From assembly GCA_044349155.1 (NCBI GenBank), contig JBIKRQ010000001.1:6418-70417 (forward strand): a stretch of 64,000 nucleotides of DNA. The letters run 5' to 3'. This DNA comes from Myxococcota bacterium (GTDB lineage Bacteria; Myxococcota; UBA727; VGSZ01). Position 1 is the stretch's first letter, and each line of letters begins with the position of its first letter. Shown here piece after piece: positions 9,150 through 54,935 of this stretch. The translations under genes were made by a program, and so were the position numbers. A model generated the notes under the pieces. It was given only the letters and a program-made list of their open reading frames with translations, searched no databases and was not told the DNA's origin.

Positions 9150-11126
<1,977 letters not shown>

Positions 11127-17407: not shown

Positions 17408-17846
17408 GGCGGCTCCCGTTGAGGACTGGGTAGAGCACGACGACGCGGATGTTCTTGAGGTCGGCCGAGGGGCTGCCGTCGGTGACGCGCCAACACAGGT
17501 CGTACACGCCGGCAGCATCGGGGTCGCCGAGCTCGTTGACGCGAAAGTGCTGTGGGCCAGTGGTCATCGTGCACAGCGCGTCGGCGGCAGTGCCGGCACC
17601 TGCGGCGCTGGCGGTGTTGGCGTCGAGGGTGGTGGAGTTCCTGGGGATCGCCGCCAACAACTCCATGCGCTGCTGCGCAATGCTGAAGGCGATCCACTCG
17701 TGCTTCGCGCTGGCCTGGTTCACGACGCTGTCGTGAAAGGCGACAACGGCGGTGCCAACGACGAGGCCACTCAACGCGAGGGCCACCATCACTTCCACCA
17801 GCGAGAACCCGCGACCGCGACGTCGAAACAGACTTCGGTGGTGCAT
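17382..17846 (-). CDS. pilV: type IV pilus minor pilin PilV-like
   Basis: MHHRSLFRRRGRG|FSLVEVMVALALSGLVVGTAVVAF prepilin-type N-terminus. GGGAG SD is present, and the start lies 1 nt after the stop of the upstream pseudopilin gene. Confidence 0.7.
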   Translation of the reverse strand: MHHRSLFRRRGRGFSLVEVMVALALSGLVVGTAVVAFHDSVVNQASAKHEWIAFSIAQQRMELLAAIPRNSTTLDANTASAAGAGTAADALCTMTTGPQHFRVNELGDPDAAGVYDLCWRVTDGSPSADLKNIRVVVLYPVLNGSRHVIVQTIR

Positions 17847-17847
17847 C

Positions 17848-18426: not shown

Positions 18427-18514
18427 CAGCTGACGCTGACAGGTCCGTTGTCGACACCGCGACTGATCCGTTGTGCTGTGGCTCACAACGTCTCGAAAAG
18501 CGGTGAGGTTTGCC

Positions 18515-23054: not shown

Positions 23055-23166
23055 GCGGGGGATGATGGCAGAGCCACGGCACGACGCCAGCCGCACAAAA
23101 CGCAGGTGCCGACGCAACAAACGCTGGACAAGCCCAACAGGTTTGCTAAGAGCACGTCCAGACTTC

Positions 23167-23371: not shown

Positions 23372-24157
23372 ATGCTACGGGGGGGCCCAGCACTCGCGCT
23401 TTGTGCGCTCACATTGTTCGGCTGCGACCGGTCGGTTGCGCCCGACCAGCGTCGTGCAGCCGAAAACGTCATTGGCAAGCTGCCCGCACCGATCCGCGAG
23501 CGGTTCGCCACCGCTGCCGGCCGCCGCGAGATGGAGCGCGCCCTCGACGACAAAGCGCTGCTTGTCGCCGAGGCTCGACGACACGAGTTTCACGAACGTC
23601 CAGACATTCGGACGGCCGTGCAAGAACTTGAGAACAAGTTGATTGTGCAAGCGCTGCTCGAACAAGAGCGCGCCACCGTTTCATCGACAGAGCCAGAACT
23701 TCGGGCGTACTACGACGCCCACCGCGCTGACTTTCGCTTGCCCGCGCGGCGTGAAACCTCGCGCATCCTCGTCGCTGACGCTGACCCAACCGCGGCGCAA
23801 CAGCGGATCGATGGCTTGAAGAAGCGCCTTGCTGCTGGTGAGCCGTTCGCGGTTGTGGCTGCTGCCGGAGACGGTGCCGAGCGCATCACATCGGGGCGCC
23901 TCGGGCACGTGAACCAAGCGCAGGAGGATCGCGCGCTCGCCGACGCTGTCTTCGCCGCCGAGGTGGGCAAGGTGGTTGGCCCGGTGCGCGTCCGCGACGG
24001 CCAGGCCCTGCTGCTGGTCACCGCCGTGCTGCCGGCGTCTGAGCAAGCTTTCGAGGCCGTCCGCGGCGTCGTCGAGAACAAGCTGCAGCCGACGCTGCAG
24101 CGTCGGTCGTTTGAACGTCTGGTGGAACGTCTGCGGACGGAGGCTGACCGTGAGTGA
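23372..24157 (+). CDS. parvulin-type peptidyl-prolyl cis-trans isomerase lipoprotein (SurA/PrsA-like), copy 1
   Basis: MLRGGPALALCALTLFGCDRS carries a lipobox. A SurA-N-like helical segment is followed by a parvulin-like core (RRETSRILV...GDGAERITSGRLGHV...VGKVVGPVRVRDGQALLLV). Its stop TGA at 24155..24157 overlaps the start of the giant gene. Confidence 0.65.
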   Translation: MLRGGPALALCALTLFGCDRSVAPDQRRAAENVIGKLPAPIRERFATAAGRREMERALDDKALLVAEARRHEFHERPDIRTAVQELENKLIVQALLEQERATVSSTEPELRAYYDAHRADFRLPARRETSRILVADADPTAAQQRIDGLKKRLAAGEPFAVVAAAGDGAERITSGRLGHVNQAQEDRALADAVFAAEVGKVVGPVRVRDGQALLLVTAVLPASEQAFEAVRGVVENKLQPTLQRRSFERLVERLRTEADRE

Positions 24158-27100
24158 TCGCCACGCAGGCCGGGGGGCCCTCGCGACGTTTGTGACGACG
24201 ACCATCGTTGCTGTTCTGTGTTGCTTCAGCAGCGCCACGTCGGCGGAGCCTGTCGGCGTCTCTGTTCGCCAACCGATACGCGTCGGTTCTTCCACCACCG
24301 TCGAGTTGAGCATCACCAGCAGCGGTGCCCAGGTCGCGGTGAGCGCGCACGGCGTCGACGCCGGTGGCGCCTTTGCCCAGGTTGATGGCGTGACCACCGC
24401 CGTCGACGCCAGCGGCGTGGCACGCCTCTCGTTGCCGTTGCTGCGTGCGTTTCCTGAAGGTGGGCGCCTCGATGTCGACATCGTCGATATCGATACCAGC
24501 GGTACCCGGAGCCCGGCTGTTCGGCGCACCTTCGACGCGAAGGCTGCTGGGCCCCGCTTCGACGCAGAGCCCGCCGTCGAGATCAGTGCCGGTGGTGTCG
24601 GCGTACGCTTGAGCCACCCTACCGACGTGGTCCTCAGTGACGTGCGCATTATCCTCGCCAGCGCCGAAGCGCTTCGTGGCGTCAATGGCGACTTGCAGCG
24701 CGCCGCCGCGTTGTCGGTGTTGTCCGTCGGCCGCGTCACGACCCCAACGCGCGTTGGCGCGACGTCGACATCGTCGTTCTTTCCGCTGCTCGAGAGCCGA
24801 TCGCTGCCTGCTGATGGTGTGGCGCTGGTAGAGGCGACGTTGAGCGACGCCTTTGGTCGCACGTCGAGCCGCTCGCTGGTGTCGTTCGTCGATACGGGGG
24901 CACTCGACCAGTTGCTCAGCTTGTCGATTGGTCAGGGTCCTGTGCTGCTGTCGGCGGGGTTTGGCCAGCGGCTCGCGCTGCCGGTGACGGGGCACTTTCT
25001 CATCGCCGGCGATGTCGACCTGCGCGGCGCCGAGTCGGGCGTCGTGTACACGTCGAGTGACATTGAGGTTGTCGCCGTCACCAGCGACGGCACCCTGGTC
25101 GCACGCAACAACGGCACAGCGACGGTGACGGCGCGGTTCGGCAGCGTTGAAGCCAGTGTCGACGTGATCGTGGACAGCACAGCAGAACTCGTGTCGTTGG
25201 CGATCGCCGCCGCAGACGGCGGGCCAGGCGCAACGATTGAGCTGCCACGAGCCGATGTCTCGCAACGCGTTCGACTGTTGGCGACCCTCAGCGACGACCG
25301 CATTGTCGACGTCAGCGACGCCAGCACCATCTGGGCCAGCAGCGCGCCGGGCATCGTTCGCGCCGATCCTGGAGCGTTGTTGGTGGCGCGTGCGCCAGGC
25401 GAGGCAACGGTCACCGCCACACTCGGGACGCTGCAGGGGAGTGCCCGCGTGGTCGTTCGCGACGGCGAGCCCACCATCACCGTGAGTGCCGCGCAAGCTG
25501 TGGCTGGTGAAGCCTTCGAAGTCACCGCCTACCCCGCCGACGACATTGGCGTCGAGCGCGTCACCTTCTTCATCAACGGCGTCCCTGCCAACGTGCTCGA
25601 AGCCGCCCCATGGACGATTCAGCTGCAAGCGCCACCACGGCCCGGTGCGCAGATCACCGTGGCCGCCGTCGTGACCGACACGGCGCAACAGCCGACCCGC
25701 AGCAGCGACGTCAATGTGTCTGTTGTTGCTGCTCCGGTACCGAGCGCCGTTGCTCTGTCGTTTGTGAAGCCGACGACCTCGAGCTTCCTGGTCGCGGGGC
25801 AGGGCACCACGCTGACGGTATCGGGGGGCTCGCAGCGCGGATTGCAGGCGGTCCGCTTCTACGCCGACGGGACACTCATTGGGACGTCGACAGCGGCACG
25901 TGTGGTCCTCGAGCCCGGCGTTGCAACCGCCGAACCGGTTCAACGGGTGCTGTGGGAAGTGGGCTACACGCCAGCGACGTCGTTGGCTGGTCGCGGCGTC
26001 GTGCTGCGCGCCGTTGGCGTGGAAGCGAGTGGTGCCGAGACTGCAGCGGCCGTCGTCGCTGTTCGCGTTCAGGCAGACACAACCGCGGCGATCGTGATGG
26101 CGGCGCCGCTGGCTTCGCCAGTGCAGGCAACCGTTGGGCGCGTGATGACCTTTAGCGGCACCATCGTCGACGACACGTTGGCGCTGGGGGCCCAACTCAC
26201 CCTTGTTGTCGATGAGCGCGACATCGCGTCGACGAACATCGTGGCGACGACAACAGATGGCAGCATCGCTGGCACGGCTCCGTTCGCTGTTCGCTTTGTT
26301 CCAACAGCGATCCGTCACGAGGTGAGCATCCGTGTCACCGACACGAACAACAAAGTGACATCGCGATCGTTCGTGGTGCTGACGACGACAGAACTCCCGC
26401 CCGAGGTGTTGATCCTGACGCCGGTTGTGGGTGCTTCGTTTGCTGTCGGGCAGCTGGTGCAACTCAGTGCGGCGATCGTCGACGAGAGCGCATCGACGAC
26501 GACGGTGCAGTGGTTCGTCAACGGCAGCCCTGTCGCCACCACAGACCCCACCGGCCTGACCGCGTCATTCCGCGCCGGCGTTGCGCAGGTTGGCGGACCG
26601 GTGACCATCGAGGCGCTCGCCACCGACGACACCGGCAACCCGCGACGTGCTGCGCGCGATATCAGCGTCGTGCCCGACACCAAGGTGCCGGTCGTGAACA
26701 TCGACAGCAGCCTTTCGCCCAGCGTTGTCGTCAACAACGACCTGTTGGTGACGGTCACCGGACAGGACGAAGGCGGCATCGACCGCTTTGAGTTGCTCGT
26801 CGACGACGTGCTGGTCGCGAGCACCAATGCCCCGGGTCAGGCTGGCGACCTCGACGTGGCGCATCTCCTCGTCCCCCGGGCGCAACTGGCTCGCCTCGGA
26901 GCGCACACGCTCAAGGCCCGTGCCTTCGACAAGGCGCAGAACCCGGGCGCATCCCCAGACGTGGCCATCTCGGTCGTCGCTGATGGCCCCCCTTCGGTGG
27001 CAATCGCCAACAACCGTCGGGTTGTCACCGGCAGCACCTTTACGCTGGAAGCAACAGCAAGCGACGACACCCGGGTCGTCGAGGTTGAACTCCAGTGCAA

Positions 27101-48100: not shown

Positions 48101-51100
48101 GATAGGCGTGAAAGCCGTGGACGTCAGCGCCGACATCGTCGAGATCGCGTTCGAGGCCGTTGTTGGCACCGTCGTTGGCGATCGCCGCAGCAGCATTGCA
48201 GCGCCGTGGCGCGTCGACCTGCGCGCTCCGGCGACCACCGGCGCATCCACGGTCGTCATCCAGGCGACCGCCACCAGCCGCTCTGGTCAACAGCTGCGCC
48301 GCACACTCAACCTCACCGTTGTCGACGACCTCACAAACCCATCGCTCTCGCTGCTCGTGCTGCCTGATGGTCCAGTCGCTCCCGGCGCGCTCGTCACAAC
48401 CCGTGCGGTCAGCGATGCAGGCGCGGTCGAGGTCACCACCACCATCGCGATTGACGACGTGGTGCAGCTGACCGGCGGTGCCGAAACGGCCTTCGTTGTT
48501 CCCACGGTTGCCGCGGGCGCGCTGCTCCGTGTCGACGCCGTGGCGACCGACGCGGCGGGCAACCGTCGTCAGGCCACGGCGTCGCGCCGCATTGCCCCTG
48601 CCGACAGCACAACCACAACGTTGACCACCACGCCCGTCCGCCGCCTTGTCGCCGAGGCTGGTGTGCTCGTGGCGCACACCGCGAACGGTGCGCAGCAGCT
48701 CCTGCCGACGTCGTCGTCGTCGCAGCCAGGCGATGTCCTGGCGTTGTGGCGCGGCCAACGTGTGATCCGTGCGGCCAACGGGCTCGTCATCGGCGGCGTG
48801 CCGGTGGCGGTCGGCGCTGTCGACGACGTCAAAACGGGTCACGGGCGACTGCTCGCGCACACGTCGACTGGCCTTGTGGTTGAGATCGATCAAACCCTGA
48901 CCAGCACCGCGATCATCGATGCGAGCGCGCTGCTCGACGTTGGCGTCACCAGCATCCTCGTTGTGCGCGGCGGTCGCGTGCAGCGTGTGGTCGCGGGTGG
49001 CGTCACCACGCTGTTCACCACCACCGAAACGATCCGCGCAGGAGCGGCCATCGACGCCTCACGCGTGCTTGTGGTGACCGACACCTCGACAAGCCTCGTC
49101 GACGTCAGCGAAGGCGTTCTCGCCCGTGTCGACGTCGGTGGCGATCGGATCGTGACCGCGGGGGCGCGCGCCTTCGTGCTTGGCGATGCCTTGTATGAAC
49201 TCGACTTGCGTCGTCGCGCAGCGCTTGGCGTCCGCGCGGTTCGTGAAGCCGACAACATCAGCGACATCGCGGCGTTCGGCGACACCGTGTACTTCGCAGG
49301 CTCGACTGGCGTTCGCGCGCTCAAGTCGGCAGCGACAGACCACGACGTGTATGCGACCGTCTCGACCACAGCCCTCGGCGATGTTCCCGAGCAGATCGTC
49401 GACGTCGCCGGCGACCTGATCGTCCGCGGTGCGAAGTCGCAGCGGCTCGACATTGTCGGTGCGTCTCTTTCGGTGAGCGCCACCAACCTTCCCGTTGGCG
49501 TCGTCTCTTCGTCGACCGACCACGTCGTGTTCCTCACGAGCGAGGGCCGCTTGTCAGCCTGGCGTGCTGCGAGCAGCACCACGTGGACGCCGCTGTCACT
49601 GCCGGGTGTTGCCGCCACGACCACAGGCATCACAACGATGTCGTCGGGCCGTGGACGCGTCTGGTGGGGGCGCGGCAACGAACTCGGCACGGCGGCGTTT
49701 TCGACCTCGATCGCCTCGTTGACCACGCTGGACGGTACAATCGTCGACGTCGCGGCTGCTGGTGCGCAAGCGGCAGTGCTGTTGTCGTCGGGACGCGTCC
49801 TACTGATGGGCGTCGATCCGCGTGGTGCACCGCAGGTGCTCGCGTCAACAGCCGTGCCTGTGGGAACACGCGTGGCCTTCAATGGTGACGACGTGGTGGT
49901 CGCCAGCACTGGCACGCTCACCATCGTGCGCAACGTGAACAATGCACTGCAGCTCGCGACATCGGTGGCCCTCGTCGGCACGCCGCGTCGTGTGCGTCTG
50001 GCCGGGCATCAGGTCCTCGTTGCCGCAGGCAGCGCGGGTTTGCACGTCGTCGACACCGACACGTTCGCGGTCACCACCTTTGCAACGCCGCGCGCCCTCG
50101 ATGCCGCTGTCGTTGGCGATTCGCTCGTGGTGCTCGACGCCCTCGACGGCGTAACAGTGCGCCAGGCGCAGGTGGCCCGTGCGGCCGTGGCGGTCGTGGC
50201 GCCGTCGTCGGCCGACGTTCTCGCCGGCAGCATCGTGTCGGTGTTGGCCGACGCCCAACGCGCCGACGTCACGTCTGTCGAGCTGGTCATGGGGGCGACC
50301 CGTCAGTTGCTCGGCGACGCCGACGATGGCGACCTGCGTTTCAACGTGACCTTGCCGTCGTCGTTGAGCGTGGGCGCGCCGTTGCAGTTCGCGGTCACGA
50401 GCCAGAGTGCTGGCGGCACGAGCACGGCGTTGTCACCGGTACTCTACGTCGCAGCACCGCCGTCCACGCTCAGCGCGAGCTGGGTGGCGCCCGGCGACAC
50501 CGCCGTGCGACCTGGTGCCGACGTCGGGATCGCCATCGACGTCATTGGTGCTGCAGGCGTCGCCACGGGCCTCGTGACGGTCGATGACGTCGCAGTTGGT
50601 GAACTCGTCGACACCACAACGGCGGGCACCACGCGTCGCCTTGTCTCCACGATCACCGTACCGAGCGACGCCGTCGACACCATCGACGTTGATGTCGTCG
50701 TCACCGATGGAGCAGGGCGCTCGGCACAGGTCCGCCGTACCTGGAACGTCATCGCCGACACGGCGCCACCGTTCTCGCTCACGGGCTTGCCGAGCACGCT
50801 CAAAGCGGGGCCCGCCATCAACCTCGTGCAGCTCTCGGCGAGCGACGATGGCGTGTTCGCGTTGGAACTCGCGATGGGCTCGTCGGAGGCCGCGCTCACC
50901 ACGCTCACCCGTGTTGATGGCGTCGGCTCGGCGTCGTTGACTTGGGCGTTGGTGTTGCCGGCGAACAGCGATGGTCGAACAGTGGTCTTGCAGGGACGCG
51001 CGATCGACAGCGCCGGCCATGCGGCAACGCCAATCACCCGCAGCTACGTGGTGGCACCCGACGGTGTGGCTCCGGTTCCAACCGCAGGCGCGCCGTTGTT

Positions 51101-53726
51101 TGCGCGTGCTGGTGCCACGGTCACCCTGACGGCGTCGGCGTTCGACGAAGACGGCGACCTCTTGTCGCTCGACCTGTTCGCCAACGGCAGCCTCGTGAAA
51201 CACACCAACGGCGCCGCCATCGCCGAGCCATACACAGTCGGAAGCGACGACATCGTGGTCACTGTTGTCGCCACCGACCGTCGCACGCGTCCCGCACAGG
51301 TCACGCGCACCATCGATGTTCGCAGCTGCCCCGACCGCACGCTCACCGGCGCTGCGCCGTTGTCTGTGGAAGGCACCGTGCCCGCAGGCGACATCGTGTC
51401 GTCGAGCCGCTGCAGTCTTGGCGGGCTCGCCGACGAGACCTGGTCGTGGACCGTACCCCGCACCGGTCGCTACACGTTCGCGGCAGTGAACGCCCTCGGC
51501 GTCGTCGTTCGCGACGGTGGTTGTGGCGGCGCCGAGTTGGCCTGCAGCGGTCCCTCGAGCAGCAATCGCACGAGCCTGGCGCTCACGGCAGGCAGCGTGG
51601 TTGCGATCACCGTCGAGGACTTCGCCGGTGAGCGGTACACGCTCGACATCACGCGCACCGCAGAGTGCGGCGACGGGCTCGACAACGACAGCGACGGCGA
51701 GGCCGACTTCCCACGCGAGCCGGGCTGCATCGACCTGAACGACGACGACGAACTTGACCCGATCCCGCTGCCCGACTGCAGTGACGGCAACGACAACGAC
51801 AACGATGGTCACACCGACTTCGGGAGCGACCCGAGCTGTGTTGCTGCCAGCGGCACCGAGCACACCCCAGGCGACGTCTGTGCAGATGCACTGGTCATCG
51901 AGCCAAACGCGGTCACGCCAGCCGTGGTGCAGCTGTCACGAGCCGTCATGTCGTCGACCTTGTGTGAACCGGGACCCGACGCGTTTGTGCGGCTCGAACT
52001 GCCTGAGCAGTACCGCGCGAGGGTCGGCGTCGAGGCCTACCTGCCGGGTGGGGCGCAGGCTGACGTTGCGGTGTCCCTGGTGGAGACGTGCGGCACCACC
52101 GCGACGTGTCCTGCCGAGACCTTCGAGGTCAGCGGGTCACAGCTGATCGGCATCACGGGGACTGAAGACGTGAACCTGATCGTCGACGGCGTGCTGCTTG
52201 AAAACAGCCGCTGCGACAAGTTCAACGCGCTCGCGGCTCTTGCAGGCAACAGCAGCAACGTCGATGTGCGCCTCGCTTGCGACGAGGAGCTCGTCTGCCA
52301 AAACGACGGGCAAGGTGTCGACCGCTGCATCAAACCCGCGTGCAACGACGGCAAAGACAACGACCTCGACGGACTTACCGACTCGCCGAATGATCCAGGG
52401 TGCACCGGGCCTGACGACCTCGACGAGGGCGACCCGTGCGAGGCGGCCTACGCTGCACCCACGGTCACCATCACGGGCCAAACGACGACGGGCGGCTACG
52501 AAAACAGCGCAACGTTCACGATGAGCACGTCAGTGCCGGGCGCGTACCCGCAGTACGTGCTCGAGGTCAACGGCGTCGCGCAGCGCCCGCAGCGCTACAC
52601 CATGCCCGTGCGTCTCACGCAGTCCACAACAGTGCGCGGGCAGCTGTTGGTCGGCAGTCGCCTCGCATGCGCCGAGCACATCGAAGATGTCGTCGTCGTC
52701 GACACCAAGGCACCCACCGTGGTTTCAACGCTGCCGCGCAATGGCGCCATCGAGGCCGTTGCTCCGCAGCAGGTGGCGGCGCTCTCCGTCGCGTACTCCG
52801 AGTCGGTGCGCACGACTGGTGCGAGCACGTCCATTGTCGAAGCGGGCACAGACGGAGTCTTCAATACCGGCGACGACGTCACGCTCGAGCCATGTAACGC
52901 CACCGCCGCGGCCGCCGACGTGTTGCTTGCTCCATGCGACGTTGGTCCGGGGCGCTATCGGGCGACGGTGGCGGGTGTGACCGATGCGGCAGGGAACGTC
53001 GCTTCGAGCATTGAGTGGACGTTCACGGTCTCGCTCGACAGCGACGACGACGGCGTTCCGGACACGTATGAAGCGCTTCTCGGCCTTCAGCCCAACAACC
53101 CCGACAGCAACGGCAATGGCAAGCTCGACGGTCGCGAAGACTTCGACGGCGACGGCATCAGCAACGAGAGCGAGCTGGCGCTTGGCACCAACCCCGCCGT
53201 GGCAGACAGCGACGGCGACGGCAAGCCTGACGGCGACGAAGACAGTGACGGCGACGCACTCTCCGACGCTGCGGAACTCCTGGCAGGCACCAGGATCGAC
53301 GACCCCGACAGCGACAACGACGGCTTCCGCGACGGCATCGAGGTGGAGATGAAGTCCTCGCCCAACCTCGCGGCCAGCTACCCCAGCGGCTTCGTCGCTG
53401 CGAACGACCAGCCCACGGTGGTGCGCTTCGTCAACGAGTCAGGCGCTGCAGGCCTCGGCACGTTCGCTTCAACGGCGCAGCCAACGATTGTGCGATTCGT
53501 GGCCGATCCAAGTGCAGCCAACATGGGCACGTTCGCCTCTCGGCAGCAGCCAACGGTGGTGCGCTTCAGTTACGAACTCGGCGCTGCAGATACGGGCACA
53601 TTTGGCTCGCGTGCGCAGCCAACAGTGGTGCGGTTTGTCGTCGACGCAGCGGGGACGGGCAGTTTCGTGGCAACGCCACCGGTATGTGTAAACGGCAGCA
53701 ATCTCGACGGATTGCAGTGTAAATAA
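24150..53726 (+). CDS. giant secreted multidomain surface protein, ~9,858 aa
   Basis: Single uninterrupted frame. A GTG at 24150 is preceded by GGAGG (24137..24141) with a 6-nt spacer, and is followed by signal peptide ALATFVTTTIVAVLCCFSSATSA. Domains read by eye: two Big_2 (~25.0-25.5 kb), ~27 Ig-like ~100-aa repeats (25.5-33.6 kb), six to seven [IPT/TIG x2 - LVIVD propeller - SbsA-like Ig] super-modules (33.6-45.3 kb), more Ig-like and propeller-like regions (45.3-51.3 kb), three Cys-framed DxDxDG motifs inside pre-peptidase-C-terminal-like domains (51.3-52.4 kb), thrombospondin-type-3 repeats (53.0-53.3 kb), and four ~22-aa C-terminal repeats ending in a Cys-x10-Cys terminus. TAA stop. Confidence 0.8.
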   Translation: MSDRHAGRGALATFVTTTIVAVLCCFSSATSAEPVGVSVRQPIRVGSSTTVELSITSSGAQVAVSAHGVDAGGAFAQVDGVTTAVDASGVARLSLPLLRAFPEGGRLDVDIVDIDTSGTRSPAVRRTFDAKAAGPRFDAEPAVEISAGGVGVRLSHPTDVVLSDVRIILASAEALRGVNGDLQRAAALSVLSVGRVTTPTRVGATSTSSFFPLLESRSLPADGVALVEATLSDAFGRTSSRSLVSFVDTGALDQLLSLSIGQGPVLLSAGFGQRLALPVTGHFLIAGDVDLRGAESGVVYTSSDIEVVAVTSDGTLVARNNGTATVTARFGSVEASVDVIVDSTAELVSLAIAAADGGPGATIELPRADVSQRVRLLATLSDDRIVDVSDASTIWASSAPGIVRADPGALLVARAPGEATVTATLGTLQGSARVVVRDGEPTITVSAAQAVAGEAFEVTAYPADDIGVERVTFFINGVPANVLEAAPWTIQLQAPPRPGAQITVAAVVTDTAQQPTRSSDVNVSVVAAPVPSAVALSFVKPTTSSFLVAGQGTTLTVSGGSQRGLQAVRFYADGTLIGTSTAARVVLEPGVATAEPVQRVLWEVGYTPATSLAGRGVVLRAVGVEASGAETAAAVVAVRVQADTTAAIVMAAPLASPVQATVGRVMTFSGTIVDDTLALGAQLTLVVDERDIASTNIVATTTDGSIAGTAPFAVRFVPTAIRHEVSIRVTDTNNKVTSRSFVVLTTTELPPEVLILTPVVGASFAVGQLVQLSAAIVDESASTTTVQWFVNGSPVATTDPTGLTASFRAGVAQVGGPVTIEALATDDTGNPRRAARDISVVPDTKVPVVNIDSSLSPSVVVNNDLLVTVTGQDEGGIDRFELLVDDVLVASTNAPGQAGDLDVAHLLVPRAQLARLGAHTLKARAFDKAQNPGASPDVAISVVADGPPSVAIANNRRVVTGSTFTLEATASDDTRVVEVELQCNGVTTVRTAPPYTAPCTAPLAPGPLEVVVTARDATHATTASKTLAVVADTKEPLVSIAPTSLSPHFVGRPLTVEVTASDDTAVASISLTLDDVVLGPPLRRRIGLYEVASWSLPGATFANAGQRLLVAKVVDSSGNPTERSSTLLVVTDRAPVVTITEPAGRSIHKEGDDVTIAWSASDDDGLVGAVGVSGGVFQGVLPTTTTPTSLRGQQVTVVQGPTRSAEASVGIAAKDTAGQVTIKTVDLTIRADLEPPQATLVQPALSATPIVVYAGGALGMRVEGTDDVRIQRVEVAIDGVPLASLDRISEVLETTRFPDPFQPGQTTTSKLRRSVFGEVVSLAGVAQGPHTLKTTVYDLANPVTLREVQIDVRPFTDDQKPVATIVLSPTPDTCVINATIDVRVTATDNVRVSSMTATIGGEQREVIGGDATFPYVVAGPVGARRSFSLVARDAAGNQGTASASCLVVADAAPTVAVTTPASGDVVYPMETVNVSSRVFDDRGGTRTFAFAATALPSVVGGAVAVGISSAQRSLAIDAGGGGADVSVSAGVVTVVPRGAVGEAPLRVTFDAPSRCSIHSVWRTRLGADSSALATFVEQAEALAVEHDCRGSVELDVPHNDIDVVAVQVDFKDGAQVEVGYVDRVPSSVSYADGADALAVALRGATVLAPTTTTVSAPLRIPAAVSLFVGTVAIDVVGQSTLGVSSIFVEEDETAPTVTIGSPVAGRSFVEGYELPIEVSSVDRLATIDVSVLVNSTIELPARFTAGSAWAAVHLPSVLKQERTLSMVATAVDEAGNRSTSAPVVVNIVPDARPAIAFTELRSPVQSYDEAALSGGVVDILQGQRVAVAATCTDDIGVQTVSATIDGTDLPLTRSGSSVQMAWDVPLGADGTPHVLVVRAGDGTAFTERSLVLVALVPKAPVLGIVAPAAEQPLPEGSIRFVVDAIAADDTEVAAVDVLLDGQLALTIDRGEALSIGEVDDAGVAKATDAATQMVLNEMDPEHRDARSVLRFGGTIDLLPGFLVAGERSSFVVTVVARDIEGYETSAERTVVLVDDQTPPHVVVYRPGLAAAVHENALLEVNFDARDDVFVAAVEVRAGDLTAAFDDLEIVETIGGFDLDSVRTAEGNDVVFGPFTVDVPAPAKAPDVEDFVVAIVATDVNGLRSAPEYIVVSLKPDTRPNLSLDVSTTAVVGTTLPVHADAFDDVGVTQVELTVNGLSFQVLQRPPWTFLVPLTAVGTISLDATAMDSAGHVTPLAAPVAVEVKEDTAPAVRVSSPQNHDIRVEGRPLLVQVAANDDVEVAGVSLNVVGLPQPLRLASAAAPWVFSIPLPFGSAGRQLLLTPTATDSHGTSTTGETIQVDVVADRAAPSVAFLAPADNSRLVGGRPFEIDIDADDNVGVQRVEVVALIGGTPTPLPSIAAPPWRTVWMVPTAVGPVVLRATAFDASNNATPTEVLVTVDDDTKPLVSLVGPAKVTAGVPFSLTAEPKDDTGIAYVSFRAAYGTAEPVEIGRRYQQPHTLIHTVPKALIGTAVTFSVVAIDDAQQPGDAAIEPLVVQADTPPTVAVRRPQRDTFVFSGRSMQLEVDASDLETNVAEVSFFVNGRRVATRTAPAGLPGLSHTYVAPFMVPVGVGNRQFSMWATATDSSGNPAMSEVVTFGSIVDTVRPDAALVSPASLDVLTAGTPTTLQATALDNASIQKVAFEVGGSLVGEATVPVVSVAGQPQYEFDWRVPTQPGQLVEVVADASDPTGNHRRTAPVSFEVGLAPATSVPMNSVSVAAITRDGFVAAFNTVPRPTIELKRVGTSTTTSLASIALGDQETVQALATDGRLLAAAVAVAGTTTLRVYDVGLPTVPVLRSTLALNEADVAGMLLDDGILHIASPSRGVTRVSLRTPSAPLRLDTTPTVGSAHALAIAANRWLLVASDGGLRIHDLRHPRLLEVAFVPVPGGARSVAVDGNRAYVGGADVSGSLCAIDLADINVPYIVSIGTHRPRRADHLSKGLAFVDVEGQLVISVADVIDQDARAVKGLVNVATTNNPTAVLYRANQPRSLTEAATSHARPVGIANGRIVSFAGDSLQTFVVPALTIVGTTPGDTALAATDAVVSVRFNTAVVSSSVTATSFAVHAGDLTGPTVPGEVRVVGDLVTFTPASTLDEAAGYTVVLKGGASGISGEQTHLLADHSFRFQTATSSSDAPTIALVSPAAGTVLGGTEVMIAGAGFQPGATVAFGVEASPAVRFVSPGELRAVTPPGPSGPVAITVVNPDQQEDSVLAGWLYLDGVSVGGVAPSSGHLAGGDDVELTGSGFAPGMAVWFDDQQASNVRVESSGRALVTTPPHAFGPADIVVVVEGEQAVQPAGFFYSDLSVSARVSRYEPAIDGSVRPVNKLPGRSLALTAGPADDVVVLGAAAINTAAANIATLLSTSRAGAVNIVDPAGPVIVGGIDLPLPYAPTSIAVSRDGSTAWVLATGATLVDLELAGEGRTALFVFDLTMPTAPQLATSLQVSRTGTGAGTLALIDDVLFAALGSDGVGVFSTAVPTSPTYLGAVQGFVVAGRSRDLVVDHVAADGPRLLAADALAAVSVVLDTTRAGLPVLRATGASFTAAASRADFIWRVVPAGRDATLLQRLAGQPTWAVQDTRGAAIAGTRASHANLLASTSAVASSGEGGGALELFGAPDAAMKHIDAVSLYPAAMLTGVQIAGGRAVVAVQSSVTANERELSNDALVIVDLPFPLVVATSPAANATSVSPATSIDLTFSRDIDNVVATLVARDGSTDGQAVDVSVSTSGKVVHLQPLQSLATSTNYEVKLTSAMCCARATLPAPFTFRFTTGTVATSSEPVIAALAPRTGSVDGGAAVTITGLGFEVGAVVTVGGEVATVEHVDATQMRFVTPRGVAGAATVVVTNPSGAQATRVGGHIYLDNLAIDALEPARGSVEGGTEVLVRGRGFALDSDVTVHFGATPARTVRVLGPTLLRVVTPGGTLGSVDVTVDSGGQRAIAAAAFTYDAPTANSVEVGGVVSDMALVGDYLVVAAGTEGLKVLDTTGRYRFGPLAGTLIPPERRSRLVDENGDRIDDRVVGTWSSASHAVRRLARAPGHGGDRLLVGATADSLVRVFELDLSAPEAPALQHEELVTGAKVLGDIDLDGERLLVATDVGVVSYDVSGAPFEVARTATSTTALAVTGGVGAFGNSAGATLFDGHAPVPNGGTAFAVNTRALDVAADGSVVAATPTGVAVFGFGMPLTSSLFATGAYDIDLVNGIAHVASGSDGVRVFAVDRGRLESLYAIAPASSGSVEVVATDGHQIASARRADGRWFIDWTLHGDLMLTSSSIAPDAVLEHDPSPITLSFSRPLDASTVPLSTTLTIGNERISIAVAGGSLAAPVSTLSIVAGTLPSGGVGELRIAGLRSVDGRTLRHDIVIPVTTARRAGVAPVLSTVSPRLISTKGDTVVVLSGQAFDEPVVTIGGFEATVVSSEAREIVVQAPEGPRGLADVQVTNASGLHDELVGGCVYVEPIAVDSATPRFLNPLGGTLVTIRGHGFMRAGLEAPTGPTVFFRGVPAVQVITRSDTLLQAVAPAGTFGPVPVVVRDAASKRAEGPVLGYGLTSTHSERVSGTTVSSIDIDESQPGYAFAAGGASNGGNRTPRPFVGPLMGAGTIPTTTSAIGFDISGSNGPKTALAAFSALSDNPAEENLLADLVIAVLSFRTPRTVALPDVDLMPDSHDTLVTGDRVLVANGEAGLVSLAMTGEGTTASFFRESSTQAQLARRVALRGHTALVTGIEMGVDPPPDDQDGCNGTKPAKNQDGTVQIVDLRQANDPVTVGALAGGNAIDVAVARAGHAAVLSSSLKGVLYCPPSAAQIASGNPLPQPPEWSLDVLPGHNTWNQSWARIDVLGAVSTNAVLKAQLSLTEDAADVVWITDRVLAVAVESGVRFYDVGARLTQVAFVPFDETLMAVPGKPNALELVGDVLFVASRGGGVVLIDVRKPTVPDVLSAGNTENAIDVDVFGDRAYVAGGASLVELAMPFMLATGSAPARDERVAPTAAPLRVYLNRPVAGFAPSTVVLTGPAGRVEIDVTTERDNARERHAVVATPRAPLAPETSYELTVGTTLTDTQGGRLLLPWTTSFTTGPAGTLQPSIDEVRPLFASAGDVVTVSGTNLTGVKHVRIGGVAASFDIVDGALAVVVPQLAAGSHDVEVVDAGGPTATEPQGLLVLAPLEPATVSPAHGPLAGGTRVTLTFPRASLAPGSSITIGDVAGVAVDVDTLMVVTFATPQRDLAGLVRVAVTRPGEAPVVVGSFAYETPEQLSIDLPGYPDRVASDIALRATRLFVASDASGYFGADIMDISLPERPLRRGSLVTTAPVHGLDVRDDLLALAVDERGVQLVDVFDENAPFVVREVPVFGRATDVRFREQSLWVTTSVDGAAGGFLQEVSLTSQPTTLRAIEFDEDVLAVDEGLDGLAVLTSDITATGADGLTLRLLDANGATTNSIAVDAGVASVADRVRSRLLLLPGRAYVTIGNQVQVYSTSPLTLLETKVVGVRTAGLTRQGALVYVASAAEATLTALEVSRFQVFNVAPRGLAQASTAVSAEVSQPISARSLSPTSMPVTSAFGAVDGTHEVTFDVRGAVATFTPQGLLPARVTASLTTDLRSFSAEPLATPVSWSFTTVDGDQPTITSVTPHTVSIDAPFLLAIDGSGFNEASRVFIGDQEWPATLVGDGHLEVDLEGLGNEGLYAVEVVDASGLRARRDAAIRVDDNLTLIALSPTSGPLMGTNTVTLTGRGFRPGMAVVFGATASFLVSVDSSRSARAIVPPGTSGLVDVTVQVTQEQAQLPAAYRYGSGAVATVTSPPLADVALHGTDIWTAAGGALTREGVTIGQPRGMIVGWDASEPNALRQYQGVIDVGGSGVEHLVVVDDLLYAAAGTAGVQLVDISVTDRAAVVATAAGDGAVHDVVVRDDIVLAADDAGISQLLRTPAGLVALGRVSIAGGVRRLAVARNLVVASAADGTLLVVDARRGDLRVLGRLPLGSAATDIEVDGNRAFVALGAQGMVQIVDLTEPTAPAPIGTVVLQGDAEAWDVDVTMDTILVAAGAGAIQRFSVPVGAQPAWVETLSLNDDVRSFERRGQRLFAATVYPLRAGERLAAGTPLTVSDKLSGAVVTVSTEHLEVLELNPTTIDPIAPNAALTVALGEQLSPSSRAGISLHTDAGALEPLRTQRVDATRILVDVSTGSTLPAGQAVQLTLAGLKGLSTSTQPVTQRATWQTGTRPNESAPAITEVSPAVAPLAGAPLHIRGAALPADATVTIGGAVAVAMSSSRADDLVVLAPAGVEGAATVEVTTPGGLVARRWGGVRYLRSPTITTVQPTSQPFNSRGAVVVKGTGLSSASVVRFGAVPARTTSQQADGSLLVTIPDDVIGDVSVTVANPGDVAIATAATAFTFTLTSHSTIPVDGQRVAARGRRLAIADATRVHLYDTTVPTAVRELATVTLGASALDLELDDDSIVAVTSSALYRWSLARCTPSSCILGAPEVTTYVGGNHVAVGTADDRLVMAVTDGDEATLFASIDGVFDVVASTVLEAPIAELAVTTAGIVALTDATPASLLLLDSTNGLLDVIERRELTGDAVALSTFGTQVAALTTTGFVVVDVDGAIAPVSAGTAVGGSIALHGPVLAIAGANTSLFDVTTSTARHLSFTPTWSRGVAFSNGTLVALSSTAAVLALPYAVPASSTPLPGGALVVGEPVTIALGTEAPVTTVLGGFVNLGVAQHQLTTASSFGAVANVPVVGSFAASVQFGAWPVNNSAFGSPWRFGWHAVDGVPHTLTSVTPDHGPQAGGTVVALSGQGIGTATRLEVGGDVVAFTPTLEGIEFVTPAARAAGPVDIVVTTPTGTLRADAAFAYIAPLTLSTITPAVVDNLGGSVELRGSGFTRGARVTIDNVAVAATFVSSTALQVAVPAGPNAALAVTVTQPGVASVTRSDLLQRDDRHGPVVVNLLPADRPVSPTSSLQLVFDEPVGVPLSPIVLAGVSLAPQRSSVDPRVVELNNATLPSSGSMNLVVRAQRDLLGNAGTEKAIVFRVQDVEKPTLSLRRQGAAVVDGTPFARGLPWTFSLNVNDDSHVVSSLVVTIDGVVVANRTGVSDQTLEFTWAWPQATIADSTSHIAITAIDAAHNQRDLGVNVRVTADNPPAAPTIVFSTASPQDAEPVVVDVASIDDIAIARLVLTVDGQVVSDGSNQTTSVRQRFSAGDHVITARATDNGGQTSPLASRTISVSADTTPPQISLLAPVATARLPKDRQVTIDLDVTDTGGVGSVELRTAGVSRTLSAPPWRFDVMPDSSTLQVDVTALDTRGNHNTRQFTWQTTEAPGSLRLTSPAGDARINEHSTLTIAGTASAATVRVDAFGETVEVAVDGGRFATTRLAPTVVEDEVAVISVGDGRNTAARTVRIVNVDEATGELHVLRWPNGAPLLAGTRLDVAQTVSVPATPSTSIVQDAVVIGSGDSTASATTTSDAHDVTIVAAAITTAAGTALSAAENVAVTPWLTTESNNVIEFDDRTAEVVTVDADTSGATTLALGRTSGGRALLANASAHIDFAGDPVGLVSAGDAVLVVINHQGSTQVQRRRRDTLALTGTTTIAGTTNAVVEAVGLVALGQDDGLVVIRPDGTELQRHVLGAITALASTGNKVTAVVDAADVVDLDVLTGTVSAVAPATATWPQPIDAVAGAGTTLCVLGGANATDIVCADNAAVELPLPARSLSRFGPHLLVHGLADTSLLVGGAAVFSTEDEGVVVSGDRWFFTRNNTVHMRRLHRAAPASVELSGTIPTTMAATTTAASGLTVSSNSDVVDVVTVDVFVDGGRVARAFNGVPALPSIAAGAHEVTICATSVSGAQSCRNSTTTFEPTAPAITAWRVATTATAGGVVNLEFVLQGAVAAVVVDVNGVDQGTGTPLQQREVVMPSAAGSVVVGAVPVAADGTRGARVTSTIAVVAATSAPTFELVRDGSGAIAEGTPIGVKAVDVSADIVEIAFEAVVGTVVGDRRSSIAAPWRVDLRAPATTGASTVVIQATATSRSGQQLRRTLNLTVVDDLTNPSLSLLVLPDGPVAPGALVTTRAVSDAGAVEVTTTIAIDDVVQLTGGAETAFVVPTVAAGALLRVDAVATDAAGNRRQATASRRIAPADSTTTTLTTTPVRRLVAEAGVLVAHTANGAQQLLPTSSSSQPGDVLALWRGQRVIRAANGLVIGGVPVAVGAVDDVKTGHGRLLAHTSTGLVVEIDQTLTSTAIIDASALLDVGVTSILVVRGGRVQRVVAGGVTTLFTTTETIRAGAAIDASRVLVVTDTSTSLVDVSEGVLARVDVGGDRIVTAGARAFVLGDALYELDLRRRAALGVRAVREADNISDIAAFGDTVYFAGSTGVRALKSAATDHDVYATVSTTALGDVPEQIVDVAGDLIVRGAKSQRLDIVGASLSVSATNLPVGVVSSSTDHVVFLTSEGRLSAWRAASSTTWTPLSLPGVAATTTGITTMSSGRGRVWWGRGNELGTAAFSTSIASLTTLDGTIVDVAAAGAQAAVLLSSGRVLLMGVDPRGAPQVLASTAVPVGTRVAFNGDDVVVASTGTLTIVRNVNNALQLATSVALVGTPRRVRLAGHQVLVAAGSAGLHVVDTDTFAVTTFATPRALDAAVVGDSLVVLDALDGVTVRQAQVARAAVAVVAPSSADVLAGSIVSVLADAQRADVTSVELVMGATRQLLGDADDGDLRFNVTLPSSLSVGAPLQFAVTSQSAGGTSTALSPVLYVAAPPSTLSASWVAPGDTAVRPGADVGIAIDVIGAAGVATGLVTVDDVAVGELVDTTTAGTTRRLVSTITVPSDAVDTIDVDVVVTDGAGRSAQVRRTWNVIADTAPPFSLTGLPSTLKAGPAINLVQLSASDDGVFALELAMGSSEAALTTLTRVDGVGSASLTWALVLPANSDGRTVVLQGRAIDSAGHAATPITRSYVVAPDGVAPVPTAGAPLFARAGATVTLTASAFDEDGDLLSLDLFANGSLVKHTNGAAIAEPYTVGSDDIVVTVVATDRRTRPAQVTRTIDVRSCPDRTLTGAAPLSVEGTVPAGDIVSSSRCSLGGLADETWSWTVPRTGRYTFAAVNALGVVVRDGGCGGAELACSGPSSSNRTSLALTAGSVVAITVEDFAGERYTLDITRTAECGDGLDNDSDGEADFPREPGCIDLNDDDELDPIPLPDCSDGNDNDNDGHTDFGSDPSCVAASGTEHTPGDVCADALVIEPNAVTPAVVQLSRAVMSSTLCEPGPDAFVRLELPEQYRARVGVEAYLPGGAQADVAVSLVETCGTTATCPAETFEVSGSQLIGITGTEDVNLIVDGVLLENSRCDKFNALAALAGNSSNVDVRLACDEELVCQNDGQGVDRCIKPACNDGKDNDLDGLTDSPNDPGCTGPDDLDEGDPCEAAYAAPTVTITGQTTTGGYENSATFTMSTSVPGAYPQYVLEVNGVAQRPQRYTMPVRLTQSTTVRGQLLVGSRLACAEHIEDVVVVDTKAPTVVSTLPRNGAIEAVAPQQVAALSVAYSESVRTTGASTSIVEAGTDGVFNTGDDVTLEPCNATAAAADVLLAPCDVGPGRYRATVAGVTDAAGNVASSIEWTFTVSLDSDDDGVPDTYEALLGLQPNNPDSNGNGKLDGREDFDGDGISNESELALGTNPAVADSDGDGKPDGDEDSDGDALSDAAELLAGTRIDDPDSDNDGFRDGIEVEMKSSPNLAASYPSGFVAANDQPTVVRFVNESGAAGLGTFASTAQPTIVRFVADPSAANMGTFASRQQPTVVRFSYELGAADTGTFGSRAQPTVVRFVVDAAGTGSFVATPPVCVNGSNLDGLQCK

Positions 53727-53738
53727 GCAGGAGAGAAT

Positions 53739-54935
53739 ATGCTTGGAATCTTGTTGCTACACTTCAATCTCGCGGCGCAAGTCGTCCTCGTCGGCGGCAG
53801 CACCGGTGCAGATGGTGTTCTGAATAAGGACTATCTTGACGTGCACGACACCGATGGTCAATTTGGGAGCCCATATCTCCTCACGGTCCCGGCGGGTGGG
53901 CGATTTGAGTTTTCTACGATCAACATTCCAGCGAATGTCACTGTCGGGTTTAAAAGCAATGCAATGAATGACCCTGTCTATCTGCTGGCAACAGGCGATG
54001 TCACGATCGCAGGTCTCGTCCATGTCGACGGGCAACGGGGTCAAACCTCGGCCGGCGGGCGCGGTGGGCCTGGTGGCTACGATGGCGGCGAACCAGGTTT
54101 CGGCGCCACGCCCGGTGACGGCCACGGCCCTGGAGGCGGCCATTTCACTCCGGTAGCCGTTGAGGACAACAACTCACGAAGGGCCCTTTGGTCTGGCAGC
54201 TACTCGGCCGTCGGCCCCGACGGGACGGGTTGGGGTAGAAAGGGCACCGGATCCATCTATGGAAATCCATCATGCTTCCCCCTGACAGGTGGGTCGGGGG
54301 GAGCCGGTGGCTTCAATCAAGGCGGCGGTGGTGGTGGTGGTGGCGCGATCTTGATTGGGTCTGAAGGCAAGATTTCCATCTCGGGAGCTGTGCGCTCACT
54401 TGGCGGTATCTACCCGAACCAGCTGACAGCAGGTAGTGCCTCGGGCGGGTGCGTTCGGATCGTCGCACCGGCCGTGATTGTAACGGGCACGTTGGAGGCA
54501 ACCAGTGTGTTGCCAGGCGTCGACGGAACCGAGTACGGCGGTCGGGGCTTTGTCCGTATTGATACCATTGACCGCTCGGGTCTCGCTGGCATCTCCACCC
54601 CAAGATACAGCGTTGGATCTAATATGGTTGTGCGACTCCAAAGTATGCCACAAATTAGTACAATTTCGGCGGCTGGCCGCACCGTCATCAATGGTGAGAA
54701 GCTCTTCGTGACACTCACCAACGGCGAGCCCGCGCTGCAGGATGTTGTCGTCGAGGTCGCCAACTTCCCCGGGGCACCTGCCTGCGTGAACCTCAACGTC
54801 ATCACCGTGCCCGGCAGCGGCGCGGCCACGAAGACCTCGTTCCCCGCGAAGCCCAACGGCACCCACACGTTGTCCGTGAACATTCCGCAGAACACGGCGA
54901 CGTCGATCGAAGTCTACGGCACGGTGTGCCCGTGA
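53739..54935 (+). CDS. glycine-rich secreted protein, probable beta-helix fold (398 aa)
   Basis: Strong SD AGGAGA 5 nt upstream of the ATG. Signal peptide MLGILLLHFNLAAQVVLVGGSTG. Gly runs (GGRGGPGGYDGGEPG, GGGGGGGGAILIG) alternate with short hydrophobic rungs. The 5' half is ~50-55% GC, markedly below local background. Confidence 0.6.
   Translation: MLGILLLHFNLAAQVVLVGGSTGADGVLNKDYLDVHDTDGQFGSPYLLTVPAGGRFEFSTINIPANVTVGFKSNAMNDPVYLLATGDVTIAGLVHVDGQRGQTSAGGRGGPGGYDGGEPGFGATPGDGHGPGGGHFTPVAVEDNNSRRALWSGSYSAVGPDGTGWGRKGTGSIYGNPSCFPLTGGSGGAGGFNQGGGGGGGGAILIGSEGKISISGAVRSLGGIYPNQLTAGSASGGCVRIVAPAVIVTGTLEATSVLPGVDGTEYGGRGFVRIDTIDRSGLAGISTPRYSVGSNMVVRLQSMPQISTISAAGRTVINGEKLFVTLTNGEPALQDVVVEVANFPGAPACVNLNVITVPGSGAATKTSFPAKPNGTHTLSVNIPQNTATSIEVYGTVCP

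Follow-up and report, generated by a model that had tools for sequence, protein, structure and literature searches.

Within a 64,000-nt stretch of a Myxococcota bacterium genome (contig JBIKRQ010000001.1 of assembly GCA_044349155.1, positions 6,418 to 70,417 of the forward strand; hereafter the window), a single open reading frame (ORF) at 24150..53726 on the + strand encodes a giant protein of 9,858 aa, 1,005 kDa and pI 4.58. The ORF is genuine and its product is an acidic, almost all-β, Sec-exported multidomain protein of ~1.0 MDa. By sequence comparison, the giant protein is an orthologue in a conserved, uncharacterised family of giant proteins of Myxococcota that is already represented in databases. 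Bacteria commonly have giant surface proteins built of Ig repeats, and homologues of this one have been deposited under automatic names; what the locus adds is an intact, full-length member with its domains mapped, in a family that is mostly partial in cultured Myxococcus and Corallococcus. New here are the propeller-first register of the seven units that form the central part of the protein, the operon with two peptidyl-prolyl isomerases (PPIases) and a second giant protein, the pairing of PPIase and giant genes that is conserved in relatives, and the orthology of the units one by one.

The frame is free of stop codons over 23976..53726 of the + strand. Its best start is the GTG at 24150, with GGAGG a few bases 5′, which gives 9,858 aa and a stop at 53726, i.e., the uninterrupted frame of 9,859 codons reported in a preliminary description of this DNA. 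The start is backed by the orthologue at locus L090, which has the same initial residues ('VSDR..GRGALA'; VSDRQSAGRGALA...) and where the giant gene overlaps the upstream gene through the identical GTGAGTGA, as it does here. The locus is also present in the twenty-year co-assembly of Lake Mendota (IMG 3300059473 / GCA_041445565.1; PMC11374980); on this separate 49.4-kb contig of GCA_041445565.1 the NCBI gene call is exactly 9,858 aa, and the version of the JGI caller is 9,844 aa. Exact copies of the neighbouring genes were found in metagenome assemblies only.

At 67% GC, ~2.3% of random codons are stops, and the probability that ~9,900 codons stay open by chance is P ~ e^-228. Codon-position GC is 0.69/0.53/0.78 throughout, in every 1.5-kb slice of the giant frame. 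No 20-mer is repeated inside the giant ORF, and when the nucleotide self-comparison proposed earlier for internal duplications was run by blastn, the sole matches were the ~70%-identical 69-nt repeats encoding the C-terminus, at 53395-53644. At the protein level the repeats are 30–45% identical, as measured by self-BLAST in chunks (self-BLAST of the whole protein gave the identity match only). Because the ORF holds no DNA repeats able to collapse or expand, the concern over an assembly artefact is dismissed. The broader proposal that the frame is chimeric or expanded through assembly, or that it is a pseudogene in decay left open by chance, is effectively refuted, and we give it practically no credence: the source is indeed a metagenome assembly and the GC at third codon positions (GC3) of the giant gene is slightly under that of its neighbours, but the coding signature is even along the whole frame, a contig with other boundaries yields the identical 9,858-aa call, and more than 7,000 aa are collinear with orthologues, one relative having a gene of at least 9,844 aa.

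Word-indexed searches missed the family: module 5 returned five matches, and the N-terminal alignment returned one irrelevant match. The family was found by exhaustive phmmer, in which a single unit of 600 aa was compared with 1.84 billion representatives and which recovered other giant proteins in a single alignment across almost the whole unit. By BLASTP, residues 27-7327 of the giant protein align with residues 24-7510 of the homologue P0065 in a single collinear high-scoring segment pair (HSP; 32% identity, 2516 bits), and residues 50-6646 align with P0036 from Corallococcus sicarius, again as a single collinear HSP (33%, 2346 bits). Long collinear stretches were also obtained with P0031, P0064, P0073, P0040, P0105, P0049 and P0126 (29–33%, 410–1677 bits). 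Members of the family with public records include RKH40976.1 / WP_147443728.1 of C. sicarius ('IPT/TIG domain-containing protein, partial'), GEL71664.1 of Myxococcus virescens (UniRef A0A511HE18), which is P0073, WP_194869333.1 of Myxococcus sp. AB025B ('Ig-like domain-containing protein, partial'), WP_415835183.1 of Corallococcus soli, and MBS2024357.1 from a metagenome-assembled genome of Deltaproteobacteria. RefSeq names the family 'IPT/TIG domain-containing protein' or 'Ig-like domain-containing protein', and we found no paper on any member.

Relative to these named members, the giant protein shows ~32% identity only, so that it belongs to a distant lineage. The collinearity with them takes in the N-terminal domain, the Ig array and all seven units. 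Closer orthologues, with 46–48% identity, occur in metagenomes (L086 and L090). Since the orthologue of a related organism is at least 9,844 aa long and runs off its contig, giant size is a trait of the family. The earlier ranking of the protein among the largest of bacteria is therefore a fair description at 1.0 MDa, but one that applies to the family rather than to this protein in particular; bacterial proteins of considerably greater size have been recorded. Most database members are partial, broken at contig ends, whereas the giant protein is complete. The C-termini of the family vary: P0073 has Gly-rich repeats and P0031 has Cys-rich modules, in contrast to the acidic-disulfide block, Big_5 domain, TSP3 repeats and QPTVVRF repeats of the giant protein.

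We assigned domains by Pfam scans (in 1,000-aa pieces), local profile hidden Markov models (HMMs), profile-profile comparison with hhalign, and AF2/AlphaFold modelling. The central region (aa 2713-6949, 32286..44996, + strand) consists of seven units, each with a β-propeller of ~300–430 aa, an Ig-fold domain (Big_5 where detectable) and then two TIG domains. The TIG assignment (PF01833) made previously is secure, with 46–164 bits per 1,000-aa piece (71.6–163.8 in the four pieces that cover the units) against a gathering cut-off of 20.9. The 14 TIG domains form seven pairs, starting at aa 3175, 3817, 4410, 5114, 5651, 6251 and 6796 (nt 33672-44996), which matches the 1.8–2.0-kb period that had been recognised at 33.6–45.3 kb. 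Big_5 (PF13205, cut-off 23.6) is clear in units 1, 2 and 4 and at the C-terminus, with 86, 44 and 26 bits per piece, and falls just short of the cut-off in unit 5 (23.0 bits). Pfam and HMMs detected no Big_5 in units 3, 6 and 7, where a putative Ig-like β-domain takes its place. The Big_5-like domain that had been placed after every propeller thus holds for three units, is marginal in a fourth and was not recovered in the other three.

To place the start of the first unit, a propeller profile was used that drew only on the remaining units and one external LVIVD protein. Against this profile, aa 2713-3064 scored 93% (E 3e-7) alone and 97.4% (E 1e-11) with orthologues in hhalign, compared to 0.1–0.3% for four control regions. 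As the first Big_5/TIG pair has a propeller ahead of it, the unit is better read propeller-first, starting at ~nt 32286 (aa 2713), ~1.3 kb upstream of the repeat start given in the preliminary description. The repeats described there are real; their number, left at six to seven, is seven.

All seven units lie on the + strand. Unit 1 (aa 2713-3332, 32286..34145) has its propeller, Big_5 at aa 3065-3167 and the TIG pair at aa 3175-3332; unit 2 (aa 3333-3975, 34146..36074) has a propeller, Big_5 at aa 3711-3808 and a TIG pair. In unit 3 (aa 3976-4572, 36075..37865) the propeller is followed by an Ig-like domain with a CopC/Big_5-like hint and by the TIG pair, and unit 4 (aa 4573-5270, 37866..39959) has the longest propeller segment, Big_5 at aa 5004-5106 and a TIG pair. 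Unit 5 (aa 5271-5808, 39960..41573) comprises a propeller, the borderline Big_5 and a TIG pair. The best-preserved LVIVD-like propeller is that of unit 6 (aa 5809-6407, 41574..43370), ahead of an Ig-like domain and a TIG pair, and a strongly diverged propeller, an Ig-like domain and the last TIG pair make up unit 7 (aa 6408-6949, 43371..44996). The candidate propeller of unit 7 (aa 6408-6700) gave an hhalign E of 0.046 alone and reached 88.9% (E 2.4e-6) once orthologues were added; the AF2 model of this segment is β-rich and of low confidence, with a predicted local distance difference test (pLDDT) value of 56, and unit 7 is the least conserved of the seven. The 215 aa past the last TIG pair are not propeller-like by hhalign.

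The arrangement of the units is shared across the family. In the homologues that span the region (P0065, P0031, P0073 and P0040, the last from a metagenome-assembled genome) all 14 TIG domains are present; they make up seven pairs, whose uneven spacing is kept: the distances between pairs are 642/593/704/537/600/545 aa in the giant protein and 622/618/706/557/622/573 aa in P0065. The partial proteins of Corallococcus and Myxococcus sp. AB025B have matching spacing as far as their sequence extends. To compare the units individually, each of the seven was aligned by Smith-Waterman with those of P0065 and P0031, the propeller-plus-Ig segments and the TIG pairs being scored separately. In all four matrices the diagonal was the row maximum in seven of seven rows. 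For the propeller-plus-Ig segments the mean score was 407–455 for orthologous units, compared to 86–96 for non-corresponding units. The diagonal form of the matrices indicates that the seven units predate the split of the lineages and that each has been under its own constraint. Such individual conservation over a deep divergence argues for seven distinct functions or contacts, rather than for amplification of length.

The type of the propellers is a separate question from their presence. Direct scores for LVIVD (PF08309) in the giant protein were 18.0 bits (unit 6), 15.8 bits and 11.3 bits (unit 4), relative to a gathering cut-off of 20.2. The module propeller aligns in more than one register to the LVIVD-annotated proteins P0001-P0003 (PF08309; PF09826), at 29% identity (E = 5e-16). 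The orthologous propellers exceed the LVIVD cut-off in four of six family fragments (87.5, 27.9, 27.1 and 25.4 bits). In the AF2 model of aa 5651-6250, two confident TIG domains are followed by ~27–28 strands in four-strand groups over ~290 aa; the predicted propeller has ~7 blades of ~42 aa, with core pLDDT of 85–94. Foldseek with this model gave 7–8-bladed propellers as top matches (E = 3e-13). Among these, Tako8 and Ika8 (Ika8 was also found by phmmer) were considered as LVIVD relatives and rejected, given that both derive from the WD40 propeller of Fbw7 (PMC6327176); in view of this origin the Foldseek result signifies a generic propeller, and nothing more specific. No solved LVIVD structure was found for comparison. 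These results suggest that the propellers are LVIVD-type, as supported indirectly through LVIVD-annotated homologues, orthologues and the AF2 model. Of the previous LVIVD assignment, then, the propeller itself stands, with ~7 modelled blades, and the orthologues pass the Pfam cut-off, but the giant protein does not do so directly.

The LVIVD repeat was originally reported from surface proteins of archaeal and bacterial cells (Adindla et al., 2004; PMC2447325). The giant protein resembles these LVIVD proteins in its ~42-aa blade period, in the pattern 'a-V-x-V-x-G-x-x-A-Y-V-A-x-x-x-x-G-L-x-V-V-D-V-S-x-P', in the predicted β-propeller and in the extracytoplasmic context. It differs in that its copies have diverged below the gathering score, and in that there is no one long LVIVD run; instead, seven single propellers are each split from the next by three Ig-fold domains. 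Two unrelated bacterial giants, P0056 (4,285 aa) and P0127 (2,297 aa), have many canonical LVIVD propellers that alternate with Ig runs, so that propeller-plus-Ig super-modules are a recurrent bacterial design. The earlier view of the architecture as more typical of archaeal and eukaryotic receptors is contradicted by these further bacterial giants, and by the retention of the same seven units, unit for unit, in Myxococcota homologues.

Five translationally coupled genes follow one another in the order PPIase1, giant 1 (the giant gene), ORF398, PPIase2 and giant 2. PPIase1 (23372..24157, + strand) is a 261-aa lipoprotein-type parvulin with an N-terminal signal and the lipobox LFGC, and its TGA stop overlaps the GTG start of the giant gene by 8 nt. 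It scores 66.3 bits for Rotamase_2, 32.5 for Rotamase and 28.2 for Rotamase_3 in Pfam, and the 261-aa call is also made in GCA_041445565.1. A shadow ORF on the opposite strand (23375-23680) was rejected in favour of PPIase1 from the public gene calls and Pfam. PPIase2 (54932..55657, + strand) is likewise a lipoprotein-type parvulin, of 241 aa, with the lipobox AVGC; it has GTGA overlaps both with ORF398 and with giant 2, and scores 47.4 bits for Rotamase_3 and 45.3 bits for Rotamase. Giant 2 (55654..64000, + strand) continues past the window and has a length of 4,520 aa according to public annotation, with a signal peptide, many TSP3 repeats, Glucodextran_B, Big_13, Big_5, a TrAA12-like domain and DUF6531, which is Rhs-associated.

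The pairing of PPIase and giant genes is conserved in relatives and is a candidate trait of the family. Homologues of the PPIase with 55–57% identity lie directly 5′ of the orthologous giant gene, with overlapping codons, at L086, L087, L088 and L090, and in the distant family member L084 parvulin genes are directly upstream too. Conversely, a PPIase of 30% identity, P0182 (L089), is not linked to a giant gene, which indicates that only L084 and the closer orthologues of the PPIase share the linkage. At L086 (572-3254), a gene with a Mu-transposase C-terminal domain, and not the housekeeping genes of the window, precedes the PPIase-giant pair. This difference in upstream context suggests that the pair travels together. 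Comparison of the giant locus with L084 showed no upstream synteny besides the PPIase genes. At L084 (5508-9096), a same-strand parvulin gene (346 aa) and a gene for a trypsin-like protease with a PPC domain (560 aa) stand before the giant gene, and a divergent SurA_N-plus-parvulin gene (328 aa) is located further upstream. A processing protease may thus belong to the system in some lineages.

The foldases PrsA, SurA and PpiD offer a parallel, as PPIase1 and PPIase2 are lipoprotein-anchored parvulins that are encoded beside, and translationally coupled to, their presumed clients. All PrsA-like and SurA-like NCBIfam hints for PPIase2 were below cut-off, and both PPIase1 and PPIase2 fall under every NCBIfam equivalog cut-off. 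The housekeeping arrangement of PrsA and SurA differs from a gene-paired PPIase dedicated to one giant client. The coupling of each giant gene to its own lipoprotein parvulin provides a hypothesis for how a 1-MDa β-rich protein could be folded after Sec export.

The rest of the giant protein is consistent with an extracytoplasmic location. The predicted Sec-type signal peptide (aa 1-32, MSDRHAGRGALATFVTTTIVAVLCCFSSATSA followed by EP; 24150..24245, + strand) combines a basic n-region with a hydrophobic core of 17 aa and the cleavage motif T-S-A, all read from the sequence, and agrees with the Sec signal peptide of the earlier description; orthologues likewise start with signal peptides. No transmembrane segment was found past the signal peptide, and the protein has 45 cysteines and 5.9% proline. 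The extracytoplasmic character is supported by this signal peptide, the pI of 4.58, the lack of a later transmembrane segment, a cysteine cluster and the TSP3 repeats, the last two of which lie towards the C-terminus.

In the reading that we favour, and which we consider probable with moderate confidence, the giant protein is a Sec-exported member of a conserved family that would serve as an adhesin or matrix fibre folded with the help of the PPIase. The giant chain would leave the cytoplasm unfolded through Sec, and its ~60–70 β-domains would fold outside the cytoplasm, aided by the co-translated, membrane-anchored PrsA/SurA-like PPIase. The product would be an acidic Ca-binding fibre of ~0.3 µm if extended, assuming ~4 nm per Ig-fold domain. 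The Ig array would act as a stalk and the seven non-interchangeable propellers, three Ig-fold domains apart, as ligand-binding heads, and the disulfide-rich, Ca-binding C-terminal part would mediate attachment or interaction with the matrix. The likeliest role would then be adhesion or that of an extracellular-matrix scaffold.

Several points weigh against this reading. The direct LVIVD scores of the giant protein are under the Pfam cut-off, and the putative propeller of unit 7 is supported through orthologue profiles and a low-confidence model only, whereas units 1–6 are well supported. The adhesion or matrix role is inferred from domain content only, and no experiment or literature on the family was found. 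Pfam and NCBIfam scans detected no type I secretion system (T1SS), type V secretion system, MYXO-CTERM or other sorting signal for passage across the outer membrane or for anchoring. Finally, the PPIase linkage was seen in every context inspected, but these contexts are few: the giant locus, one related lineage (four contigs) and L084, with none from cultured Myxococcus or Corallococcus.

The operon itself brings up the alternative that survives best. DUF6531 typically precedes Rhs/YD-repeat toxin cores, and Myxococcota are predators that use kin discrimination. Taken with the position of giant 2, which has DUF6531, in the same translationally coupled operon, this predatory and kin-discriminating background would fit an apparatus for contact-dependent antagonism or polymorphic toxins, in which the giant protein is a fibre for reach and recognition, engaging target cells together with the Rhs-like giant 2. 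We consider this unlikely, because in Pfam scans the giant protein is without Rhs, DUF6531, toxin or immunity domains, any Rhs core of giant 2 would lie beyond the window, and the C-termini of P0065, P0031 and P0073 differ from that of the giant protein. In addition, the upstream neighbours at L084 are the trypsin-like protease and parvulin genes, and linkage to giant 2 was seen at the giant locus only.

The position-specific conservation of the seven units, which would also fit fixed intra- or intermolecular contacts, bears on a second alternative: a structural envelope protein, either an S-layer-like sheet or a periplasm-spanning protein, in which the propellers are self-association modules. 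S-layer proteins are normally abundant, of 40–200 kDa, and strong in codon bias. The giant gene has a lower GC3 (0.78) than its housekeeping neighbours (0.82–0.87); a mass of 1 MDa suits a fibre better than a lattice, and SLH and other S-layer anchoring domains were absent in Pfam scans. We regard an envelope role as quite unlikely, even though no outer-membrane export signal was found and LVIVD was first described in cell-surface proteins of archaea and bacteria (PMC2447325).

A protein that binds or processes extracellular polysaccharide, with lectin-like or catalytic propellers and Ig/TIG spacers as in large glycoside hydrolases, is very unlikely: there is a weak Glucodextran_B hint (21.1 bits, cut-off 27) and a weak PA14 hint, and carbohydrate-active enzymes often carry TIG and Big domains, but no catalytic or carbohydrate-binding-module family reached threshold anywhere in the 9,858 aa, and glycan-utilisation genes are absent from the flanks.

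Returning to the adhesin or matrix fibre, we also note a bolder form of it, to which we attach only a small chance: a phylum-wide ~1-MDa 'multi-receptor fibre' of Myxococcota, whose seven LVIVD heads would each bind a different kin, prey or matrix partner and which would need a dedicated PrsA-like foldase. If true, such a fibre would be a convergent bacterial counterpart of propeller-plus-IPT receptors such as plexins, with a part in multicellular or predatory behaviour. As Myxococcus xanthus and Corallococcus can be manipulated genetically, the role of the family in adhesion, matrix, motility or predation is open to direct study.

A further comparison is with the giant repeats-in-toxin (RTX) adhesins of T1SS in Gram-negative bacteria, such as MpIBP of Marinomonas primoryensis, LapA and SiiE (PMC4083281, PMC8092209), which the giant protein resembles in its megadalton size and acidic pI, in the long Ig-like extender that carries distal ligand-binding modules, in Ca-binding elements and in a probable role in adhesion. 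Unlike these adhesins, it has an N-terminal Sec signal and is without a C-terminal T1SS signal; Pfam and NCBIfam scans gave no match to RTX/HemolysinCabind repeats in the giant protein, and no T1SS genes are located within the window. Also in contrast to the near-identical repeats of RTX adhesins, those of the giant protein are ancient and diverged, with 30–45% aa identity and no DNA identity.

Metazoan plexin, semaphorin and MET receptors (with 7-bladed Sema propeller, PSI and IPT/TIG in their extracellular regions) likewise present a β-propeller head followed by IPT/TIG, and the IPT domains of plexin A1 appeared at rank 32 among the Foldseek matches. However, the propeller here would be LVIVD-type, the architecture is bacterial and conserved in Myxococcota, and neither Sema nor PSI was matched by Pfam in the giant protein. 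The resemblance to plexin-type receptors is an analogy at the level of domain class, homology not being demonstrated, and in fold it is confined to TIG. With Myxococcus CglD, a gliding adhesin (bioRxiv 10.1101/2023.10.19.562135), and MtsD, which acts in cell-cell cohesion, the giant protein has in common TSP3 Ca-binding repeats. NCBIfam matches to CglD and MtsD were at the level of repeats, with 36.9 and 27.4 bits relative to family cut-offs of 400 and 800. The ~115-aa TSP3 stretch alone is shared, and the giant protein differs from both in having no VWA or integrin-like domain.

Outside the seven units, the signal peptide is followed by a family-specific N-terminal region with a Big_2-like domain (aa 33-440, 24246..25469, + strand), recognised by homology to P0036 and P0065, to whose N-termini it is 36–37% identical (36% over the N-terminal 460 aa); Pfam Big_2 scores 29.3 bits at aa 387-435. 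The Ig-like array (aa 441-2712, 25470..32285, + strand) was mapped with Pfam Big_7, at 76–126 bits per 1,000-aa piece, and local HMMs. Here 18 copies were detected by profile search and ~23–27 are expected by spacing, so that the ~27 N-terminal Ig domains of the preliminary description are plausible in number, but they are of Big_7 type, and not Big_2.

Past the units, aa 6950-8149 (44997..48596, + strand) contain Ig-like domains, with Pfam/HMM hints of Big_7, Glucodextran_B and Big_3_3, plus a stretch at ~7400-7800 without domain assignment. Extra propellers at aa 7400-7800 and 6950-7164 were considered and rejected, as hhalign gave E = 0.6–0.9, equal to Ig controls. The region at aa 8150-8690 (48597..50219, + strand) is a probable degenerate eighth propeller, judged from transitive sequence evidence. 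A single LVIVD-like blade lies at aa 8611-8647, and RCC1, NHL and WD40 hints were below threshold. Direct hhalign of the region was not significant (E 0.05–0.2), but its counterparts in P0073 and P0031, which align to aa 8494-9016 and 8530-9061, scored 71–90% as propeller.

After further Ig-like domains (aa 8691-9050, + strand), a Cys-rich block (aa 9051-9520, 51300..52709, + strand) holds three 'CxDGxDNDxDGxxD' acidic double-disulfide-like repeats, for which NCBIfam acid_disulf_rpt scored 34.4 bits, below its cut-off of 41; aa 9060-9596 contain 22 of the 45 cysteines of the protein. The C-terminal Big_5 (aa 9522-9629, 52713..53036, + strand; Pfam/HMM) precedes bacterial TSP3 repeats, which are thrombospondin type-3-like and Ca-binding (aa 9630-9745, 53037..53384, + strand; Pfam TSP3_bac, 49.6 bits in three stretches). 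The protein ends in four tandem ~23-aa 'QPTVVRF...GTFAS' repeats (aa 9750-9858, 53397..53723, + strand) with the consensus 'QPTVVRF(V)xxxxAAxxGTFASxx', and then a terminal Cys pair (CVNGSNLDGLQCK). These repeats match no known family and were absent from the 83 other loci compared; together with CVNGSNLDGLQCK they may represent a new kind of element for anchoring or sorting. A scan of the genome collection with the C-terminal 809 aa yielded no orthologue, just matches to TSP3 and Cys repeats in many phyla.

Between the giant gene and PPIase2, ORF398 (53739..54935, + strand) encodes a Gly-rich protein of 398 aa, starting 12 nt past the giant stop with its own GGAG site. Its GC3 is 0.65, compared to 0.78–0.85 in its neighbours, and it had no Pfam or NCBIfam match. 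The exact sequence occurs on four public contig blocks, where it is called as a gene. A similarity of ORF398 to the Gly-rich C-terminus of P0073 was rejected as compositional, since its 22.3 bits equalled the best shuffled control.

A sigma-70 promoter scan 5′ of PPIase1 found none, although the consensus may not apply to the host. The remaining flanks of the operon consist of housekeeping genes (dapA, dapB, tyrS, and those for a 5-FTHF cyclo-ligase and a cobalamin adenosyltransferase) and a pilin-like cluster, and are probably unrelated to the giant operon. The cluster (13074-18486, − strand) encodes two proteins with a prepilin-type N-terminal methylation motif (154 and 192-212 aa) and proteins of 343 aa and ~1,100 aa without Pfam match; it resembles a minor-pilin/PilY1-like or type II secretion system pseudopilin set, and is separated by ~5 kb from the operon, which is encoded on the other strand. 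At 8670-11126 on the + strand, an 818-aa protein combines an MJ0042-type zinc ribbon (Zn_ribbon_4, 52 bits) with TPR repeats at its C-terminus, a combination that is common in Myxococcota; along with the distribution of the homologues and the GC content of 67%, it points to Myxococcota as the phylum of the source. Divergent from the operon, a protein of 640-662 aa without Pfam match (21132-23120, − strand) is found beside the operon in two independent assemblies.

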